DNA from: a virus
Lineage: Duplodnaviria > Caudoviricetes
Reading direction: 5' to 3' (one strand)
DNA length: 62,151 bases
Virus record (IMG/VR): IMGVR_UViG_3300042458_000246
Location: 1-62,151 of that record
The notes beneath the pieces were generated by a model that worked only from the letters and a program-made list of their open reading frames with translations, had not been told where the DNA came from and did no database searches. This document shows, one piece after another, positions 1-62,151 of the stretch. A program made the translations under genes and the position numbers. Numbering within the stretch: position 1 is the first letter of the stretch; every line of letters starts with the position of its first letter.

Positions 1-91
1 CTTCACGGAAAGGTTCTACTTTGTATTCACCTGTCTCATGATTCATCTTTGGCTTAATCTTCTTTTCAAAGCCACTACGATATTTATCCAT
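1..91 (-). CDS. 5' end (partial) of the 120-aa head-associated gene, endonuclease-free allele
   Basis: Translates as MDKYRSGFEKKIKPKMNHETGEYKVEPFRE, versus MDKYRKGFEQKIKPKMNHETGEYKVEPFRE at 61528. Confidence 0.85.
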   Translation of the reverse strand, partial: MDKYRSGFEKKIKPKMNHETGEYKVEPFRE

Positions 92-102
92 AAATTATTT
101 CT

Positions 103-129
103 AGAAAGACTCCCCCAATTAAGAGGGAG
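103..129 (-). terminator. Terminator/attenuator-like hairpin after portal (endonuclease-free allele only)
   Basis: Minus strand CTCCCTC-TTAATT-GGGGGAG followed by TCTTTCT. Confidence 0.5.
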
Positions 130-137
130 GGTTATTA

Positions 138-2417
138 TTACATCATTGGGTTTTCACCAGCAGCCGCAGGTCCACCCTGTGGTTGTGGTGCTTGACTACC
201 TTGAGGCTTACTTGCATCAATATGTGAGTCAGCATCAATGAAAGACTTAGCCATTGCAAGGAGTTCTTTAATGTCAGGCTTAGGAGGCATTTCAACCCCT
301 TCTTTAGCCGCCTGAATATATAGCTTACCCCACTCTTGATAACTCTTATCCAAAGCAACCATAAGTTGTTTGGTATTATCTTGCATGGCATTTTTAGCTT
401 GTACATTAGTGAGGTCAAGCGTTGCTTGTCTCTGTGCTATGTCAATCATCTTAACTTGTTCTTCAAGTTGTTTCTGTTTTTCTTGAGCCGCTACTTCACC
501 TTCTCTTGACTGCATTGCCTGTTCAATAAACTTAGGGTCTGTATAGTCAACAAGGAAGTCAAGAGGATCCATATCCATAGACTCAATTGCTTTACATGCA
601 ATAGTTACTGCTGCTGAGGGGCTAACAGCTCCACCAGCTCCTGCTTGTTGCAGTGCTGGAATAATCTGTTGACCAATTACATTCATCTTCTTCATGATAT
701 TGCTGTTACTGTTTTCACCAACATCAACATCAACATAGAGCATCAAGTTACTTGGTAATGTACCAGGATCAACAGACTTAAACAAGTCATTCTGATCATA
801 GTAACCAACTTCTTGACCACGGAGTTTATCCCGCATTGTTTTGTAGATACCTTCACACAGACGCTTAAAGCCTGTTTCAGCAAACCTACGTGCCATAAAC
901 TGGATACGTACTTGTGCCGCAGACATAGCTCTCTGCATCTTTTCTTCTGAATTGCCAGAGACATAGAGTGTATCATTAAGACCTTGAGCCGCTTTAGACA
1001 AACCTGTAGCCTGTTCCTTGTGCATTTGTAATAGCTCAAGAATAGGTACTGTACCTGTACTGATAGTGTCAGGTGTCATTGAGGCAACCGCATTGTTAGG
1101 GTTACCATTGGTAGCAATAATCTGTTTAGGCTTCATGTTCTGTAGAGCACTGAAGTCAACAACATTAGGGTCAGCAAGCTTAGGTGAGTAGTTAGTTAAG
1201 TAGACATTCTCAATAAATCCACGCATAATAGCTGTTGAGGCTAGTGTCATGGGTCGAATCATATCTGCTACTGACAAACCAAAGAATTCATGTGGTACTT
1301 CAAAAGGACAAAGAGTCGCCAATGGAATCATATCACAATCTTCTTCCATGAGGATTGTTGAACCAGCAATAATAAAATGCTTTAGTTCAGCAATACCGTC
1401 ACCATCACGGTCTACTCGTAACCAACACTCAATAACAGTGAGTTGTCGATTAGCTTCTGACGGGAATAGCTCCCGTGAATTTCCCCCAAGCCAGTACTCT
1501 TCACCAACCAGACGCTTACGAGCAGCTTGCTCTTCGGTGTACTTGGTAGCCCAATCATAGCTACCGTCTCCAATGGCGTCCCAGTCAATATTCTCTGCTA
1601 TGTCAGGGAAAAACTTTCTAACTTCAGATCGAGTCATATCAATCTGGATACCCACAAATGCCGCATCATCAAGTGAGTGCGCATCCCGTGTAATACGGAA
1701 ACATTCTGGGTGTACATTCTTAATTAAAATTCTTGTCTTGTTCTTTTTCTTTTTAAGGCGAACATCCTTGTATACCATTTTGTATACAGCATTACCTTCT
1801 TCATCGGTGTCTAACTCTTGTTCATATTTAAGATCTCCGATAATTTCTGTGTCATCTTCTGATAACAAGAGATCAAGGTTTTCTTGACTGATAGAATCAA
1901 ACTCTTCAAATTTATAATCAAAGTCTTCAATATATTCCCATCGAACAATACTGTTCTTCCACAGCAATGCTGATTTAACCCATGTATTCAACACTTCCCA
2001 ACCAGGATTCTGCTTAAAAATTCCATAGTTAACAAGGTCAGAAGCTACTTTAGCCTCATGGAAAGCCTTAGGGGAACTTCCAGCAGGAATAAACCTTGCG
2101 ATCTTATTGTTGTTAAACATAAGTTCAGCAAGAATAGCTGTGTATCCTTCGATAGCCTCTACAGTGTCTGAAGAGACAATCTGTGAAGCACCTTGAGGAG
2201 TCAGGTGAAATTGCGGCATCATGCCGTATTCATAGGTAGCCTTCTGTCGTTCACGAGCTAAGTCGGAACTATTCAAGAAGTCACCAACAGAGTTCATTAC
2301 ACCCTGTTCGATCATAGCTAGGAGTTCATTATCTCCTACTGGATCTTTATATCTATCCACAAAGCGGATGACATCTCTACTTGTATCACTCATTGTAAAC
2401 CTTTCTTGGTTATACAT
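138..2417 (-). CDS. Portal protein (SU10/phiEco32/LUZ24-type); true start may be MSDT at 2393
   Basis: 759 aa between terminase and head genes. VSSDTVE, ECWLRVDRDGDGIAEL and PHEFFGLSVAD motifs, Q-rich C-terminus. Confidence 0.9.
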   Translation of the reverse strand: MYNQERFTMSDTSRDVIRFVDRYKDPVGDNELLAMIEQGVMNSVGDFLNSSDLARERQKATYEYGMMPQFHLTPQGASQIVSSDTVEAIEGYTAILAELMFNNNKIARFIPAGSSPKAFHEAKVASDLVNYGIFKQNPGWEVLNTWVKSALLWKNSIVRWEYIEDFDYKFEEFDSISQENLDLLLSEDDTEIIGDLKYEQELDTDEEGNAVYKMVYKDVRLKKKKNKTRILIKNVHPECFRITRDAHSLDDAAFVGIQIDMTRSEVRKFFPDIAENIDWDAIGDGSYDWATKYTEEQAARKRLVGEEYWLGGNSRELFPSEANRQLTVIECWLRVDRDGDGIAELKHFIIAGSTILMEEDCDMIPLATLCPFEVPHEFFGLSVADMIRPMTLASTAIMRGFIENVYLTNYSPKLADPNVVDFSALQNMKPKQIIATNGNPNNAVASMTPDTISTGTVPILELLQMHKEQATGLSKAAQGLNDTLYVSGNSEEKMQRAMSAAQVRIQFMARRFAETGFKRLCEGIYKTMRDKLRGQEVGYYDQNDLFKSVDPGTLPSNLMLYVDVDVGENSNSNIMKKMNVIGQQIIPALQQAGAGGAVSPSAAVTIACKAIESMDMDPLDFLVDYTDPKFIEQAMQSREGEVAAQEKQKQLEEQVKMIDIAQRQATLDLTNVQAKNAMQDNTKQLMVALDKSYQEWGKLYIQAAKEGVEMPPKPDIKELLAMAKSFIDADSHIDASKPQGSQAPQPQGGPAAAGENPMM

Positions 2418-3098: not shown

Positions 3099-4739
3099 TC
3101 ATATCCATGTTGTTTCTATTTGCTGAAAGTTACCCATACGTTGTGAGAAAGGTACTGTTGTGTTTGTTAACTTGTCTCCGTGTGTCCTGATAACTTCAAG
3201 AGCAATAGCCAAGGCAATAACTGTATCATCATTCTGACCTATGATAGCATTTGTCTTTCCAGACTCGTCTGCTACATAATTCATAAGTTCACCAATGATA
3301 ACCCTAGAAGGTATCCAAATATCTTCCTGTTCAATAGCATTTTTCAGGAATCCAATGATAGCTGGTTTAGAGGCTGAGGTAGTTCTCCAGCCAATCCTTG
3401 TTCCCTCTTCCTTGGATACATTCGCCATCTTTGTCTGATAGTACATATTTAGGTAACCCATTTGAGTTAACCTGTTTAATGTTGCTATACCCATAGAGTT
3501 AGACTCCACTGCTAACAAAGCATTATTATAGTACCTACCTAGATAAAATAATAAATCACCAAACTGACTAGGATCAATCGTGTTACTGCGATAAACTGCG
3601 CACACTTCCCTCTTGGCATTAATGACCACTGCTGTAGAATAATCCTTGCCAACACCCAGAGCAACGTCAGCACCGATAGCAAAGGCATCTTCAAAAGTAG
3701 GATACTTAAATATCTCGATAGACCCATCTCTTAAATCCTCCATCATAGAGGATTCAAAGTTAAACTCTCTCTTGGCTAATATTGGTTGAGGAATTAATTT
3801 ACTTAGCTTCTCAATGTTAAATACATTAGAACCAGAAACAATAAATGCTTCCTCAGGTGTCGCAGGGTATTCTTGTCGAAACTTATTCTCACCACCCTCT
3901 GCAATCTTTAACCTTCTCCAGTATAACTGATCATCACTAAGACTATACCTAGTAACTAATATCTCTTCTTCTGTTGTTCTCTCAAATCCTTCAGGGGCTT
4001 TCCTGACGTACTCTGTCATCAGGTACCATGGAACAAAAATAGCGATATAGTCATTCTCACCTTTTACAGCTCCCTGCCATAACCTGTGAAATGAGTTCCC
4101 CACACCATTAGCAGTACTCTCAAGAATAACTTCAGTTCCTTCAGACTGGGATATTCCTTGGAATAATCCTGCCAGAATCTTTTCATCATGTCCCCAAAAG
4201 GCTACCTCGGATAAGTGAGCAATAGTAGGAGTCGTTCCCCTACCAGCCTCAGGAGCACCAGCTGTATACAGCCTGTACCCTGAATCATTATGCTCAAACA
4301 TAATCTCTTTTGCATTTGACTTCTTTAACATGGGTCTGAATGTATCAGCCATGTTATAAATAATATTCCTGGACATACCAAATAATGCATCACTAGTAGC
4401 CGCATCATGCGCCATAACTACTGACTTGTTGTAAGCATTAAAGTAACTCTTCCAGAATACCCTACCTGTCGTGTATGTACTTAAACCCATCTGTCGAGCT
4501 TTTAATATAATAGCTCTGACTCTCCCTGTTTCCTTGAGTTGTTTTTCAAGAGCTTCATTAACAATCCTTTGAGCTTCATTAAACTCAAAAGATTGGAATC
4601 CCTTAGAGGAGTCCTTGGGTAAGATTTTTAATTGTTCTTTGGCGAATAATTCAAAGTCGCCTTTGTAAGCGTTTAATTTTTCACGCTTCTTTAATTCCCT
4701 CAGAGCCTCTAGCTTATCAGAATTGTTTTGTGTTGTCAT
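3099..4739 (-). CDS. terL: Terminase large subunit
   Basis: Walker A ILKARQMGLST, Walker B HLSEVAFW, ESTANG, nuclease GADVALG and NDDTVIA. Confidence 0.95.
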   Translation of the reverse strand: MTTQNNSDKLEALRELKKREKLNAYKGDFELFAKEQLKILPKDSSKGFQSFEFNEAQRIVNEALEKQLKETGRVRAIILKARQMGLSTYTTGRVFWKSYFNAYNKSVVMAHDAATSDALFGMSRNIIYNMADTFRPMLKKSNAKEIMFEHNDSGYRLYTAGAPEAGRGTTPTIAHLSEVAFWGHDEKILAGLFQGISQSEGTEVILESTANGVGNSFHRLWQGAVKGENDYIAIFVPWYLMTEYVRKAPEGFERTTEEEILVTRYSLSDDQLYWRRLKIAEGGENKFRQEYPATPEEAFIVSGSNVFNIEKLSKLIPQPILAKREFNFESSMMEDLRDGSIEIFKYPTFEDAFAIGADVALGVGKDYSTAVVINAKREVCAVYRSNTIDPSQFGDLLFYLGRYYNNALLAVESNSMGIATLNRLTQMGYLNMYYQTKMANVSKEEGTRIGWRTTSASKPAIIGFLKNAIEQEDIWIPSRVIIGELMNYVADESGKTNAIIGQNDDTVIALAIALEVIRTHGDKLTNTTVPFSQRMGNFQQIETTWI

Positions 4740-58633: not shown

Positions 58634-59749
58634 TTAGGCTCCGGACAAACCAAAAATCATTCCGCAACCTTTCGGATTCCTACATTCCAAAGTACCCTCT
58701 TCAACGATCTGACCGATGATAGAGTCACCAAGCTGACCAAGGTCAACTTCTTGCAGAGGACGCAAGCTAGCGTAGCTGAACCACATTGGATCATACAAGA
58801 ACGCTGTAAAGTTAGCCACATCGTTCACACCAGTAACTGCAGTATTAGAAATACCCATTACGTAGTTAGGAACAACCATGATGTCACCGAAGTCAGACAT
58901 GTAGATTTCAACTGACTGACGGAGCTTGCCATCAGCGTCAATATTTCGACGAACGTTAGAATCACCAGTAGAACCTGTAACGGAACCTGCAGACTGAGCC
59001 TTAGCAGAGAACACACGACGGTTAGCAGGAGACAACATCAACTTAGTGGCTTTACCACCGTTTTCATAGATGCCTTGCATAACTGTGTCAACGTGTGACA
59101 GAGCCAAAGATACTTTGTCGCCAGCAATAACGTTAGCGAATACACCGCAGACACCGCCACCAGGATTAGTAGGAGCAGTATAGTCACCGGGAACAGCCAA
59201 CACGTTCAGTGCTGTAGCAGGAGTTGTAGTAGCGGCAGTGTAGTTAACCCAAGATTGGTAACCACCAAAGGTACGAGTACCAGAGCCGTTAGAAGACTTC
59301 CAACCGTTAACCAAGTCAAACTCAACGTCACGACGAAGTTCGGTACCACGCTTTTTGAGCTGGTATGCGTATTCATCAGCAACACCTGCTTGGTCAACAG
59401 CACGCTTAGTGCCAGTAACTGTAACAGTCTTGGAGTTGATTTGTGTGTAGTTACCCAAACGTGTACGGAAGGGTTCTGTTACCTGTGCATCAGCTTGTAC
59501 TGCATAAGAGATACCTTCAGCAACTGGGTTAGATGCAGGAGGAGACAGTTCGTCTGTCTGCCACTCGTGAAACACAGCCGTAGCTTTAGTCTTGCCGATA
59601 GACGACAAGAAAGGTGTCTCATCACGAGAGATCATAGAAATAAAATTCGCTAGGTCTTCACGTTCGCCAGCGTTGACAGCGTTACCGTTGTTAGATGCGC
59701 TACGTGCGGCAGCTTTAGGACCGCCTGTTGCAAATGTTTGAATTGCCAT
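58634..59749 (-). CDS. Major capsid protein (SU10/DUF5309-type)
   Basis: REDLANFI...ETPF...HEWQTDEL, NYTQI, ELRRDVE, YMSDFG. Confidence 0.93.
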   Translation of the reverse strand: MAIQTFATGGPKAAARSASNNGNAVNAGEREDLANFISMISRDETPFLSSIGKTKATAVFHEWQTDELSPPASNPVAEGISYAVQADAQVTEPFRTRLGNYTQINSKTVTVTGTKRAVDQAGVADEYAYQLKKRGTELRRDVEFDLVNGWKSSNGSGTRTFGGYQSWVNYTAATTTPATALNVLAVPGDYTAPTNPGGGVCGVFANVIAGDKVSLALSHVDTVMQGIYENGGKATKLMLSPANRRVFSAKAQSAGSVTGSTGDSNVRRNIDADGKLRQSVEIYMSDFGDIMVVPNYVMGISNTAVTGVNDVANFTAFLYDPMWFSYASLRPLQEVDLGQLGDSIIGQIVEEGTLECRNPKGCGMIFGLSGA

Positions 59750-59775: not shown

Positions 59776-60915
59776 TTAAAGTTTTTTGCTCACTGAAGAA
59801 ATACGTTTTAGAAAATCTAATTCGTCTTGTTTAGATCCTTGACCTGTTAGAACTTTAGCTCGGTTATTAGTAACGGCTTGCTTCTCTTTTTGAGAACTCG
59901 AAGTTCCCTTCTTTGAGGGTATCGATTTCACGTTTGGAGATGCCTTTCGTTTTGCTTCACCTGTTTCTTTTGCAGTTTTAAGTTTACGGTAATCATTGAT
60001 GAACTTAACTACGTTAGGGTCATAGACCGCTTCTAGTAGTTGTTCAGGGATACCTTCTTTAATAGCGAACTCACGAATATTCTTAGCAACTTTTTCTGAA
60101 TAGTCAGGAATGAGGTTAACAATGTTTTCCTCATACTGTCTCAGTAACGCTTGTTGTTGTTCCATTTGTTGAGCTTGAATCTTTTCGACTACAGCTTTAG
60201 TTTGTTGTTCACGTTTATTGCGTGCATTCCAATACTTTTCCTGTACTTCTTCAAGTTGCTCTTTGAGTTCCCTAGCTGTGTAGGAATCACCTTCTTCTCG
60301 GGCTTTATCGATTTCGCCTTTGACTTTATGATATTCTTGTGCAAGAGTAGATTCAACAGCGGTCAGTTCTTCATTAATAACTGATCCAAGTTGGATAATC
60401 TCTTGTAACTTTTCTGCTCGTTCTTGGTCGATCTGTTTCTTCAGTTCGCCTAGTTCACGCCCCTTTTGAGATAGATGTTGATCAGTAGAATAACCCTTAC
60501 GGATTTCTTCTAGGGTAACATACTCAGTCTTACCGTCAACTGTGACGGGTACTTGGTATTCCCAATCGATGTCATCTTCAGAAGGCAAGTCAGCATTTTG
60601 GGTAGACGTATCATCCTCAGCTGTATTATCTTCTTCTGAATCATTCGATTCTTCTTCTTCATCTAGGTCATTTTCAGACTCGGTATCGTTCTCTTCTTGG
60701 GCTTCTTCTTCCGATACTTCATCTGGACTTGGGACGTCATCGCCTTTTTCTGGTAGAGATTCTTTGTTAAGACCCAACAGTTCTGCTGCTGGAGAATTAC
60801 GTAGAATGTCATCAAGGCTCTTCACTTCCAAGTCTGCACTATTCGATCCGTCATCAAAACTCTGGCTACTGATTTCAGAAGCTGGAGTGCTGGTAGAGAG
60901 ATGTGGTAGATTCAT
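59776..60915 (-). CDS. Scaffolding protein
   Basis: Acidic N-terminus, VTVDGKTEYVTLEEIRKGY, coiled coil, directly upstream of capsid. Confidence 0.88.
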   Translation of the reverse strand: MNLPHLSTSTPASEISSQSFDDGSNSADLEVKSLDDILRNSPAAELLGLNKESLPEKGDDVPSPDEVSEEEAQEENDTESENDLDEEEESNDSEEDNTAEDDTSTQNADLPSEDDIDWEYQVPVTVDGKTEYVTLEEIRKGYSTDQHLSQKGRELGELKKQIDQERAEKLQEIIQLGSVINEELTAVESTLAQEYHKVKGEIDKAREEGDSYTARELKEQLEEVQEKYWNARNKREQQTKAVVEKIQAQQMEQQQALLRQYEENIVNLIPDYSEKVAKNIREFAIKEGIPEQLLEAVYDPNVVKFINDYRKLKTAKETGEAKRKASPNVKSIPSKKGTSSSQKEKQAVTNNRAKVLTGQGSKQDELDFLKRISSVSKKL

Positions 60916-60936
60916 ATTCTTTTACCTTTGTGTCCG

Positions 60937-61173
60937 TTATTGTTTGGCTTCAGCTTTAGCTTTTTTAGCTACAGCCATACGTTCAGCGAAGTCACCTTTA
61001 GATGGTTCCATCATTCGGTTAACTGCATCAATAGCATTTGTTAGATTAACAAAGGTTGGTGCATAATTCCCTGCTCGACCTACACCGCCATTTGACCCGC
61101 ATTGGACCAATTCACGTAGGATTTCTTCTCGTGCTTTTTCAAGCACATCTTTTGCTTTATCTAAATTACTCAT
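60937..61173 (-). CDS. Hypothetical head-module protein (78 aa)
   Basis: GAGGA RBS before ATG 61173. Confidence 0.7.
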   Translation of the reverse strand: MSNLDKAKDVLEKAREEILRELVQCGSNGGVGRAGNYAPTFVNLTNAIDAVNRMMEPSKGDFAERMAVAKKAKAEAKQ

Positions 61174-61528
61174 TATTTTCCTCAGACCCCTCTTGGGTAT
61201 TGTTTTGTTGTTGGATGAACTTGACGTTATTACCGTACATTTCAATACCAACTAACTTTTCTTTAACACTGCCTAATGCCATAGCGGTATGATACAGGTA
61301 CTCTCGTTCTTTAGAACAATGAGGTTCTGTCTTCAACCACGTAACAAAAAGGTCAGCTAAGATTTCGCTATATGCGTCACCAAAGAATTGTTCACGTTCC
61401 CGTTGAACAAACTCTGCACGACCTAAGGCTACTTGGGCTTCACGGAAAGGTTCTACTTTGTATTCACCTGTCTCATGATTCATTTTAGGTTTGATTTTTT
61501 GTTCAAACCCTTTTCTGTATTTATCCAT
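61166..61528 (-). CDS. Conserved protein between portal and scaffold
   Basis: WLKT......REYLY motif; N-terminus conserved at protein level between the two alleles. Confidence 0.8.
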   Translation of the reverse strand: MDKYRKGFEQKIKPKMNHETGEYKVEPFREAQVALGRAEFVQREREQFFGDAYSEILADLFVTWLKTEPHCSKEREYLYHTAMALGSVKEKLVGIEMYGNNVKFIQQQNNTQEGSEENNE

Positions 61529-61531
61529 TAA

Positions 61532-61864
61532 TTAATTCTCATTTAAATATTTTGAAAATAAGTCAAACTTCTTTTTGCCATTTTCATAGAATCCCAATTC
61601 AACATTGCATCTAAAACAAAGAATGCCTCTAACCGTACCACTAGTATGGCAATGATCAATACAAAATCTGTTGTTATGAATGTCTGGATTCCACTCTATG
61701 CCGCATATTTCACAGCACTTCATTGAGTTTAAATACAATTCTTTAGCTGTATTCTTATCAACATTGTAAGTCCTAGCTATAAATGAAATAGCAGACTGTT
61801 CTTTATACTCAGGATTTTTACTACGTATTTTATTACGTTCCCTATCATATTGTTTTCTATCCAT
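61532..61864 (-). mobile_element. Free-standing endonuclease VII-family homing endonuclease (polymorphic insertion)
   Basis: CEICG...IDHCHTSGTVRGILCFRCNVELG; absent from the allele at 92-134. Confidence 0.88.
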
Positions 61865-61870
61865 TTTCTT

Positions 61871-61929
61871 CCCTAAAAGAAAAGGCTAGCTGTGTTAGGG
61901 CACAGCAAAGGAGCTACCTCTTTCGCCTT
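61871..61929 (-). promoter_or_regulatory. Candidate structured leader RNA of the endonuclease (three-way junction plus RBS pseudoknot)
   Basis: AAGGC/GCCTT, AAAG-AG-GTAG-CT-C-CTTT, GCTGTG-CCCTAA-CACAGC; loop CCCTAA is complementary to TTAGGG before the ATG. Confidence 0.55.
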
Positions 61930-61936
61930 ATATTTA

Positions 61937-62151
61937 TTACATCATTGGGTTTTCACCAGCAGCCGCAGGACCAGCCTGTGGTTGAGGTGCTTGACTACCT
62001 TGAGGCTTACTTGCATCCATATGCGAGTCAGCATCAATGAAAGACTTAGCCATTGCAAGGAGTTCTTTAATGTCAGGCTTAGGAGGCATTTCAACCCCTT
62101 CTTTAGCCGCCTGAATATATAGCTTACCCCACTCTTGATAACTCTTATCCA
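61937..62151 (-). CDS. Portal 3' end (partial), endonuclease-containing allele
   Basis: Duplicate of 138-352; ends ...SHMDASKPQGSQAPQPQAGPAAAGENPMM. Confidence 0.9.
   Translation of the reverse strand, partial: DKSYQEWGKLYIQAAKEGVEMPPKPDIKELLAMAKSFIDADSHMDASKPQGSQAPQPQAGPAAAGENPMM

Follow-up and report, generated by a model that had tools for sequence, protein, structure and literature searches.

Where a genome lacks a free-standing homing endonuclease, that enzyme cuts it in a conserved neighbouring gene. The DHHRN family is defined by F-CphI of cyanophage S-PM2, a proven free-standing homing enzyme with an endonuclease VII (Endo VII) motif and the only homing enzyme with that motif named as characterised in PMC6083498. 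The motif consists of CX2-4C N-terminal and CX2C C-terminal zinc ligands on either side of a central DHxH, together with one Arg and one Asn that are also conserved, and the same residues matter in F-CphI itself (PMC6083498). Here we describe a putative smaller counterpart in a 62,151-nt contig of an uncultured tailed phage (IMG/VR record IMGVR_UViG_3300042458_000246, positions 1 to 62,151; the whole stretch is hereafter called the window), in which a 110-amino-acid (aa) nuclease gene and its leader form a homing-endonuclease gene (HEG) cassette between the portal gene and the 120-aa gene downstream of it, labelled gp120 in this report. The two ends of the window hold this locus twice, without the cassette (allele A) and with it (allele B), and the runs holding the record are lake-water metagenomes.

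Like F-CphI, the nuclease is encoded by a free-standing phage gene adjoining a conserved gene and has its Endo VII motif in the C-terminal half (PMC6083498); residues 12-107 of 110 align with residues 45-138 of the 142 of F-CphI, and CxxC, DHxH, R, CxxC and N are all present. It differs in being ~30 residues shorter at the N-terminus, and in lying in the head-gene module of a ~62-kb phage with an SU10-type portal and capsid, whereas F-CphI lies beside psbA in a T4-like phage. There is also no protecting intron here, and protection would need either a rewritten stretch of the neighbouring gene or a replaced spacer.

The T4 free-standing enzymes SegB, SegF, SegG and MobE, as reviewed in PMC2988022, are likewise optional genes between conserved genes, with start and stop codons that abut or overlap those of their neighbours. 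They share with this locus the expected break in cassette-free genomes, repair templated by the carrier and co-conversion of flanks, as well as a structured leader over the ribosome-binding site (RBS), as in I-TevI-III, segB and Aeh1 mobE. In T4, however, the fold is GIY-YIG or HNH rather than the Endo VII motif, cutting occurs hundreds to thousands of bp away (PMC2988022), whereas the strictly linked differences reported below lie within 45 nt of the cassette, and the evidence here comes from natural populations and not from crosses. To judge from its title and abstract, PMC10448857 offers a further parallel, in which a nuclease gene sits exactly at the boundary between a diverged patch and near-identical flanks.

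Three other identities for the gene were considered and rejected. T4 endonuclease VII (gp49), a Holliday-junction resolvase, has the same catalytic and zinc motif, but it is 157 aa long against 110 aa here, its C-terminal part has no counterpart and the present gene is optional; a resolvase of this type was set aside on the grounds that the match covers only T4 residues 9-67, that the motif lies in the C-terminal half and that the gene occurs in only five of the 80 related loci examined (of 106 found). Packaging-associated HNH proteins encoded beside terminase and portal genes are conserved, required partners of the packaging genes, whereas this gene is missing from 75 of those 80 loci and from Roseobacter phage CRP-7, with the packaging genes intact there. 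An intron-encoded homing endonuclease was likewise rejected: the cassette is intergenic, and the sole Rfam hit at E<=1, to sok, was at chance level (16 bits vs 59).

Every gene at the locus is carried on the minus strand, and the features of the two alleles are as follows.

1-91, minus strand: allele A start of gp120, 91 nt (30 codons), translation beginning MDKYRSGFEKKIKPKM; haplotype also in locus L014 and others.
47-80, minus strand: allele A diverged stretch (gene nt 12-45); its A-type core is in 33 IMG/VR contigs, with the cassette in none.
47, 53, 56, 59, 62, 64 and 71, minus strand: positions strictly linked to the HEG (gene nt 45, 39, 36, 33, 30, 28 and 21 respectively) in the comparison of loci with and without it.
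92-134, minus strand: allele A spacer, with a terminator-like hairpin at 110-129 (7-pair stem, T-rich tail), then an AT-rich region before the ATG.
135-352, minus strand: allele A portal 3' end, stop codons at 135-140, with 5 single-nucleotide polymorphisms (SNPs) relative to allele B that are common to haplotypes without the HEG.
61166-61528, minus strand: allele B copy of gp120, full length, syntenic with CRP-7 gp58.
61484-61517, minus strand: allele B diverged stretch, with a perfect 7-bp inverted repeat at 61488-61509; its B-type 30-mer is in only 3 IMG/VR contigs.
61532-61864, minus strand: free-standing nuclease gene, 110 aa, DHHRN/Endo VII motif (PF02945).
61865-61933, minus strand: cassette leader, ~69 nt, with hairpins at 61889-61906 and 61865-61882.
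61934-62151, minus strand: allele B portal 3' end, in which 62025-62151 repeats 226-352 exactly in the base-by-base comparison (assembly closure).

An earlier sequence-only reading of the window had proposed that its two ends are the same locus, and in a direct end-to-end comparison every number it gave matched to the base. Between 1-91 and 61438-61528 there are 13 mismatches, all within 47-80 (61484-61517); the 43 nt at 92-134 in allele A stand in place of 405 nt at 61529-61933 in allele B; and between 135-352 and 61934-62151 there are five mismatches, at 171, 175, 186, 219 and 225. Thus 13 of the 18 differences fall within 34 of the 309 aligned nt, a far tighter cluster than chance would give (~1e-9 for a fixed window by our own binomial arithmetic, which is not a tool result). 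Within gp120 codons 4-15, read on the minus strand, 10 of the 12 codons differ with just two residue changes, S6K and K10Q. Allele A was also found elsewhere, L014 matching it in the portal end, spacer and stretch, and a counterpart of its spacer is present at all 75 loci checked that lack the HEG and in phage CRP-7.

The contig as a whole is best explained as a single pass round the circular assembly graph of a ~61.8-kb freshwater phage, with a short branch of the second allele left at the start. Its right end stops 127 nt past the last SNP (352-225 = 127), at the first SNP-free 127-mer, and the terminal exact match (226-352 = 62025-62151) is 127 nt, as for a walk round a circular k=127 graph that re-enters a used node; on the opposite side the exact match is only 46 nt. 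The proposal that the ends are what a k=127 assembly bubble would leave therefore holds exactly at the right end and fails at the left, where 46 and not ~126 nt are shared before the first SNP, so that allele A has the look of a minor variant left as a short dead-end branch, not of a complete bubble arm. Genotype sizes of 61799 bp for B (62151-352) and 61437 bp for A (62151-714), as predicted earlier, were reproduced by subtraction, and relatives without the cassette include contigs of 61418 and 61496 bp. Such polymorphism can leave unequal 'terminal repeats' and make a complete circular genome appear linear, as which IMG/VR classes this record (linear, 100% complete).

The uneven left end could also reflect an artefact, either because pooled data joined two related phages into a chimera or because one molecule truly holds both copies. 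Logan contigs of four runs were placed on 60500-62151, and those of X1 and X2, the possible source runs, show allele B only, which would suit an artefact; contigs lose rare variants, so this has no bearing on the absence of A. In run X7, which was not flagged as a possible source, both alleles were found with both of their flanks: a B piece of 510 nt (61454-61963) at depth 17.9, and an A-type piece of 148 nt at depth 8.65, with seven A-type letters at 61484-61507, a jump from 61507 to 61934 and the length expected from allele A (30 + 88 + 30 nt). Each connects without mismatch to the same flanking pieces, 61070-61483 and 61934-62151, giving a simple bubble, and these shared flanks identify them as alleles and not as two tandem copies. 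Each allele moreover recurs in other public contigs, the repeat starts inside gp120 and ends inside the portal gene, which makes an implausible terminal repeat, and closure at the right falls exactly 127 nt beyond the last SNP; we therefore regard an artefact as very improbable indeed. The earlier claim of two alleles at one locus stands on the X7 bubble with its common flanks and on the recurrence of the A haplotype in L014, whilst the further claim that two genotypes coexist in the source sample was too broad: coexistence was seen in X7, contigs of X1 and X2 showing B alone. Plus and minus alleles within otherwise identical genomes, as in X7, are what a free-standing homing endonuclease is expected to show, and we have little doubt that this is a mobile, optional nuclease cassette with coexisting alleles.

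The nuclease scores 53 bits against PF02945 (Endonuclease_7; gathering cut-off 23.6), its residues 30-108 covering profile positions 5-81 of 82, and PHROG endonuclease VII families match it down to 1.7e-18. It carries the full set of DHHRN residues, namely C51xxC54, D70-H71-C72-H73, R79, C83xxC86 and N87, and both these and the zinc residues are invariant in the six cassette proteins (6/6); the motif was assigned by inspection and aligns with T4 Endo VII and F-CphI; HMMER's alignment shifts the DHxH by 2. BLASTP against F-CphI gave 28% identity over 96 residues (E 3e-12) and hhalign 97.8%, whilst a profile of the cassette proteins matched the T4 Endo VII structures PDB 1e7d/1en7 (E 3e-5, T4 residues 9-67). 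The earlier assignment to Endo VII-type free-standing homing endonucleases agrees with the PF02945 score, the T4 Endo VII profile match and the full-length F-CphI alignment. The motif at residues 51-89 of 110 and the whole-length alignment would suit the 'endonuclease clade' of PMC6083498, and by sequence the protein groups with F-CphI among the DHHRN enzymes. Ratios of non-synonymous to synonymous substitution (dN/dS) of 0.07-0.20 among cassette copies indicate purifying selection. Relatives at ~30-35% identity occur in 625 cultured-phage records, and no second copy of nuclease or leader was found within the window. The structure model of the nuclease (mean predicted local distance difference test score, pLDDT, 60.7) is too weak to use.

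A search of IMG/VR with gp120 supplied the related loci counted above. The cassette is present in five of them (L001-L003, L058 and L059), every time between portal and gp120, and in the remaining 75 the spacer is 12-142 nt long. Six IMG/VR contigs and three metagenome contigs matched a 22-nt leader probe. Loci with the HEG (HEG-plus) fall into three lineages, the first made up of the window, L001-L003 and L095, the second of L058, L059 and L093, and the third of L096. In all three the terminator-type spacer is gone, and the nuclease open reading frame (ORF) runs up to or into the start codon of gp120. An optional gene lying between two conserved genes, at the same site across genomes, is the arrangement expected of a free-standing homing endonuclease. 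In L096 the nuclease ORF is 113 aa long and overlaps the gp120 start by 8 nt, and in L058 stop and start overlap by 1 nt (TAATG); such overlaps suggest that translation of gp120 is coupled to that of the nuclease ahead of it.

DNA identity between lineages is 72-76% in the ORFs and about 65-76% in the flanks, with silent sites saturated in most comparisons. That cassette copies are about as diverged between lineages (72-76%) as flanks (65-72%) fits long residence better than recent jumps, and would suit an optional gene moved by ordinary homologous recombination which has lost self-spread, the nuclease serving competition, repair or junction resolution, or else acting on a site elsewhere (portal codon 616-618, or beyond the flanks examined). 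The Endo VII fold is also found in resolvases and restriction enzymes (PMC6083498), and the flanks hold just one other fixed difference, the portal Ser/Gln codon. We nevertheless hold such an account to be improbable: the same intergenic site is occupied in three lineages whilst 75 of the 80 relatives and CRP-7 lack the cassette, the protein matches a proven homing enzyme from end to end, its motif lying in the C-terminal half as in the endonuclease clade of PMC6083498, the C-terminal part of T4 Endo VII is absent, the match being to T4 residues 9-67 only, and lineages 2 and 3 show no linkage of the portal residue to the cassette.

Linkage was assessed by comparing the five HEG-plus sequences of lineage 1 with 24 close loci lacking the HEG (HEG-minus; L004-L027). 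The stretch is A-like in all 24 and B-like in L001-L003, and the cassette accompanies the B-type 30-mer in 3/3 IMG/VR contigs and the A-type core in 0/33 (no leader or DHxH motif upstream). Among 576 variable columns in the 1500 nt downstream, the only sites at which the two groups share no base are gene nt 21, 28, 30, 33, 36, 39 and 45; among 1007 in the 2580 nt upstream, they are confined to two bases of a single portal codon (~616-618), which is Ser (TCA) in 5/5 lineage-1 HEG-plus sequences and Gln (CAA/CAG) in 24/24 close HEG-minus loci. The residue there varies among lineages and is not tied to the cassette in lineages 2 and 3. L001 is HEG-plus and yet A-like at codons 4-5, which confines strict linkage to gene nt 21-45. 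The expected linkage of a recoded tract with the endonuclease was thus upheld in relatives (3/3 vs 0/33, with no contradicting contig among those examined), though strictly for nt 21-45 only and not for all of 47-80.

Plus and minus haplotypes have shuffled flanks beyond ~80 nt. The five portal SNPs listed in the sequence-only reading proved to be ordinary polymorphisms common to plus and minus haplotypes, and were rejected as part of the element: HEG-minus L020 and L022 carry all five, and in run X10 the cassette is joined to two A-type portal letters (62018, 62024). The linkage data show that the cassette and the 25-34 nt of gp120 next to it (gene nt 12/21-45) pass together, as a single unit, through shuffled flanks. 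Such inheritance is the outcome that homing with a break in or beside the stretch would be predicted to give.

On balance, we favour as the explanation of the whole intronless homing by a cassette that replaced the 43-nt terminator spacer, with both alleles segregating in lake populations. In a mixed infection the nuclease would cut cassette-free genomes in or beside the stretch or spacer, and repair from a cassette-bearing genome would copy the cassette in, using homology in the portal 3' end and in gp120 from ~nt 46; the B genome would escape cutting, its own site having been rewritten or replaced. That the cassette is spread by its own nuclease is probable. Three differences between HEG-plus and HEG-minus loci are candidates for the target site, namely the stretch (gene nt 21-45), the replaced spacer and portal codon 616-618. 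That the recognition or cut site overlaps 47-80, as first proposed, is plausible, though somewhat short of probable. Three things favour the stretch: no sampled lineage could have been its donor, the nearest HEG-minus version differing at 9 of 36 nt; the portal side has no donor flank; and L020 and L022 keep an A-type stretch despite their other spacer, so that among HEG-minus genomes the stretch is better conserved than the spacer.

Alternatively, genuine homing may be aimed at the replaced spacer or at its junction with the start codon (at the terminator hairpin or at a conserved TCTAGAAATAATTT-ATG region), the stretch being merely an inseparable flank from the donor lineage. None of the A spacer survives in any of the three HEG-plus lineages, its 3' part hardly varies from one close HEG-minus locus to another, the divergence of the stretch is about that seen between lineages, similar dense synonymous patches exist without nucleases, and the B-type hairpin form occurs naturally in HEG-minus L043-L053, all of which suits this alternative. 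Set against it are the B stretch itself, found in no sampled lineage (nearest HEG-minus version 9/36 nt off), the portal side, where no matching donor flank was found, and HEG-minus L020 and L022, in which a quite different spacer of 112-115 nt accompanies an A-type stretch, so that the spacer is less conserved than the stretch. We consider a target in the spacer or junction rather unlikely. Two further variants of the spacer were seen. L020 and L022, and also L104 and L128, have a different 110-115-nt portal-gp120 spacer without the usual terminator hairpin, and L021 has a 32-nt palindrome-bearing insert inside the usual spacer.

Several observations weigh against a target in the stretch and against the homing account built on it. 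The stretch starts 12 nt into the gene, beside the cassette, and the first 45 nt are ~38% diverged, so that crossovers which keep the cassette fall beyond it and linkage is to be expected from position, selection or not. The divergence is of the between-lineage order, as a donor flank would be, and, as the whole A spacer is replaced in B, immunity could be explained without the stretch from an equally simple source. The T4 free-standing enzymes reviewed in PMC2988022 cut hundreds to thousands of bp from their own genes and not within 45 bp. Lineage-1 HEG-plus sequences are few (window, L001-L003 and L095) and may come from related samples; lineages 2 and 3 provide no independent fine-scale contrast, their nearest HEG-minus relatives being only ~75% identical, and were rejected as independent replicates on that ground. 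The hairpin in the B register is also found in HEG-minus lineages L043-L053.

Dense silent patches elsewhere tell in the same direction. In HEG-minus L016 and L017, gp120 nt 60-87, directly after an A-type stretch, carries 10 differences with one residue change; a mosaic tract could account for this patch, as could a scar left when sequence was exchanged earlier at this hot spot. A second bubble, in X2 and X7 at 60988-61069 in the 104-aa ORF, has 11 SNPs in 82 nt affecting 9 codons, with two residue changes and no adjoining nuclease, the minor form having a depth of 7.5-8.4 against 16.9-21.5. Finally, a scan of ~4 kb of flank in close relatives for at least 10 differences per 34 nt gave eight other patch sites. 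A cluster of silent changes beside a nuclease gene is therefore, by itself, no proof of a recoded target, like patches occurring elsewhere in the same genomes.

The start of gp120 also contains an inverted repeat. GGCTT-N13-AAGCC lies at gene nt 19-41 (window 51-73) in 55/75 HEG-minus loci, with one compensated variant, GGTTT/AAACC, and in 0/8 HEG-plus sequences (five loci counted; the window's allele B, L095 and L096 by inspection). In allele B a perfect 7-bp repeat in another register lies at 61488-61509 (-9.2 kcal/mol, with 0/200 shuffles as stable), and three of the seven linked silent changes of lineage 1 create it. A hairpin at gp120 nt 19-42 is possible in both alleles in different registers, of 7-8 bp in B and 5-6 bp in A. 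A conserved RNA hairpin here was rejected as not established, with one compensatory case in 82 sequences (43 distinct) and most pairs fixed by Gly-Phe/Lys-Pro codons. Compensation at the level of translation, in which the silent changes restore access to the gp120 start, was also rejected: swaps shift the energy by <=1.4 kcal/mol, and accessibility is 0.56-0.68 vs 0.65-0.69, in what is a weak test. It is conceivable, although we think it doubtful, that a minimal 110-aa DHHRN nuclease, perhaps as a dimer, recognises GGCTT-N13-AAGCC within 45 bp of its own gene, with an invariant leader RNA timing its translation; a palindromic target so close to the gene would be unlike those of the T4 free-standing enzymes.

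The leader is the most conserved part of the cassette across three lineages in which silent sites of the ORF are saturated (compared with L058:2598-2671 and L096:2822-2897). In the ~66 nt that precede the nuclease start only four bases vary among these lineages, and they make up two compensatory pairs in one hairpin (61889-61906), its forms being GCUGUG/CACAGC, GUUGUG/CACAAC and GUUAUG/CAUAAC. The second hairpin, at 61865-61882, covers the AGGGAAG ribosome-binding region. Hairpins that hide the RBS control translation of I-TevI, I-TevII, I-TevIII, SegB and Aeh1 MobE (PMC2988022), and the leader resembles those that delay endonuclease translation in T-even phages and may, by analogy, act likewise. 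Its folding energy alone is unremarkable (z -0.84). The idea that the leader copies the target in the manner of an operator was rejected: it matches allele A locally over 7 nt at most, a length equalled in 701/1000 shuffles.

The gene order in the direction of transcription is large terminase, portal, the 110-aa ORF (allele B only), gp120, the 104-aa ORF, scaffold and major capsid protein, the neighbours lying as follows.

3099-4739, minus strand: large terminase.
138-2417, minus strand: portal gene, 759 aa (PF23899, E 2e-126).
59776-60915, minus strand: scaffold.
58634-59749, minus strand: major capsid protein, SU10-type.

The closest cultured phage is Roseobacter phage CRP-7 (portal identity 51.5%), which has the same gene order with the portal followed directly by the gp120 counterpart and nothing between; a DNA search of cultured phages with 61000-62151 gave zero matches. 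In the ESM Atlas gp120 matches only unnamed viral clusters (score 0.90), and its structure model, a two-helix hairpin (mean pLDDT 68.9, predicted template modelling score 0.33), is too weak to use. The acidic region of the scaffold gene has a 3-nt deletion variant at window position 60643 in contigs of runs X1 and X7.

Taken as a whole, this is a clean and fairly ordinary example of a putative homing endonuclease, of a type already known, caught with both versions coexisting. Beside F-CphI it would make a second, smaller case, with the presumed susceptible and resistant natural alleles in hand and three candidate immunity determinants, and its value lies in the two natural alleles, the very small enzyme, the short list of candidate immunity sites and the conserved leader. 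For the uncultured lake phage itself, it presents a selfish nuclease cassette segregating at ~2:1 in the population and visible from metagenomes alone.

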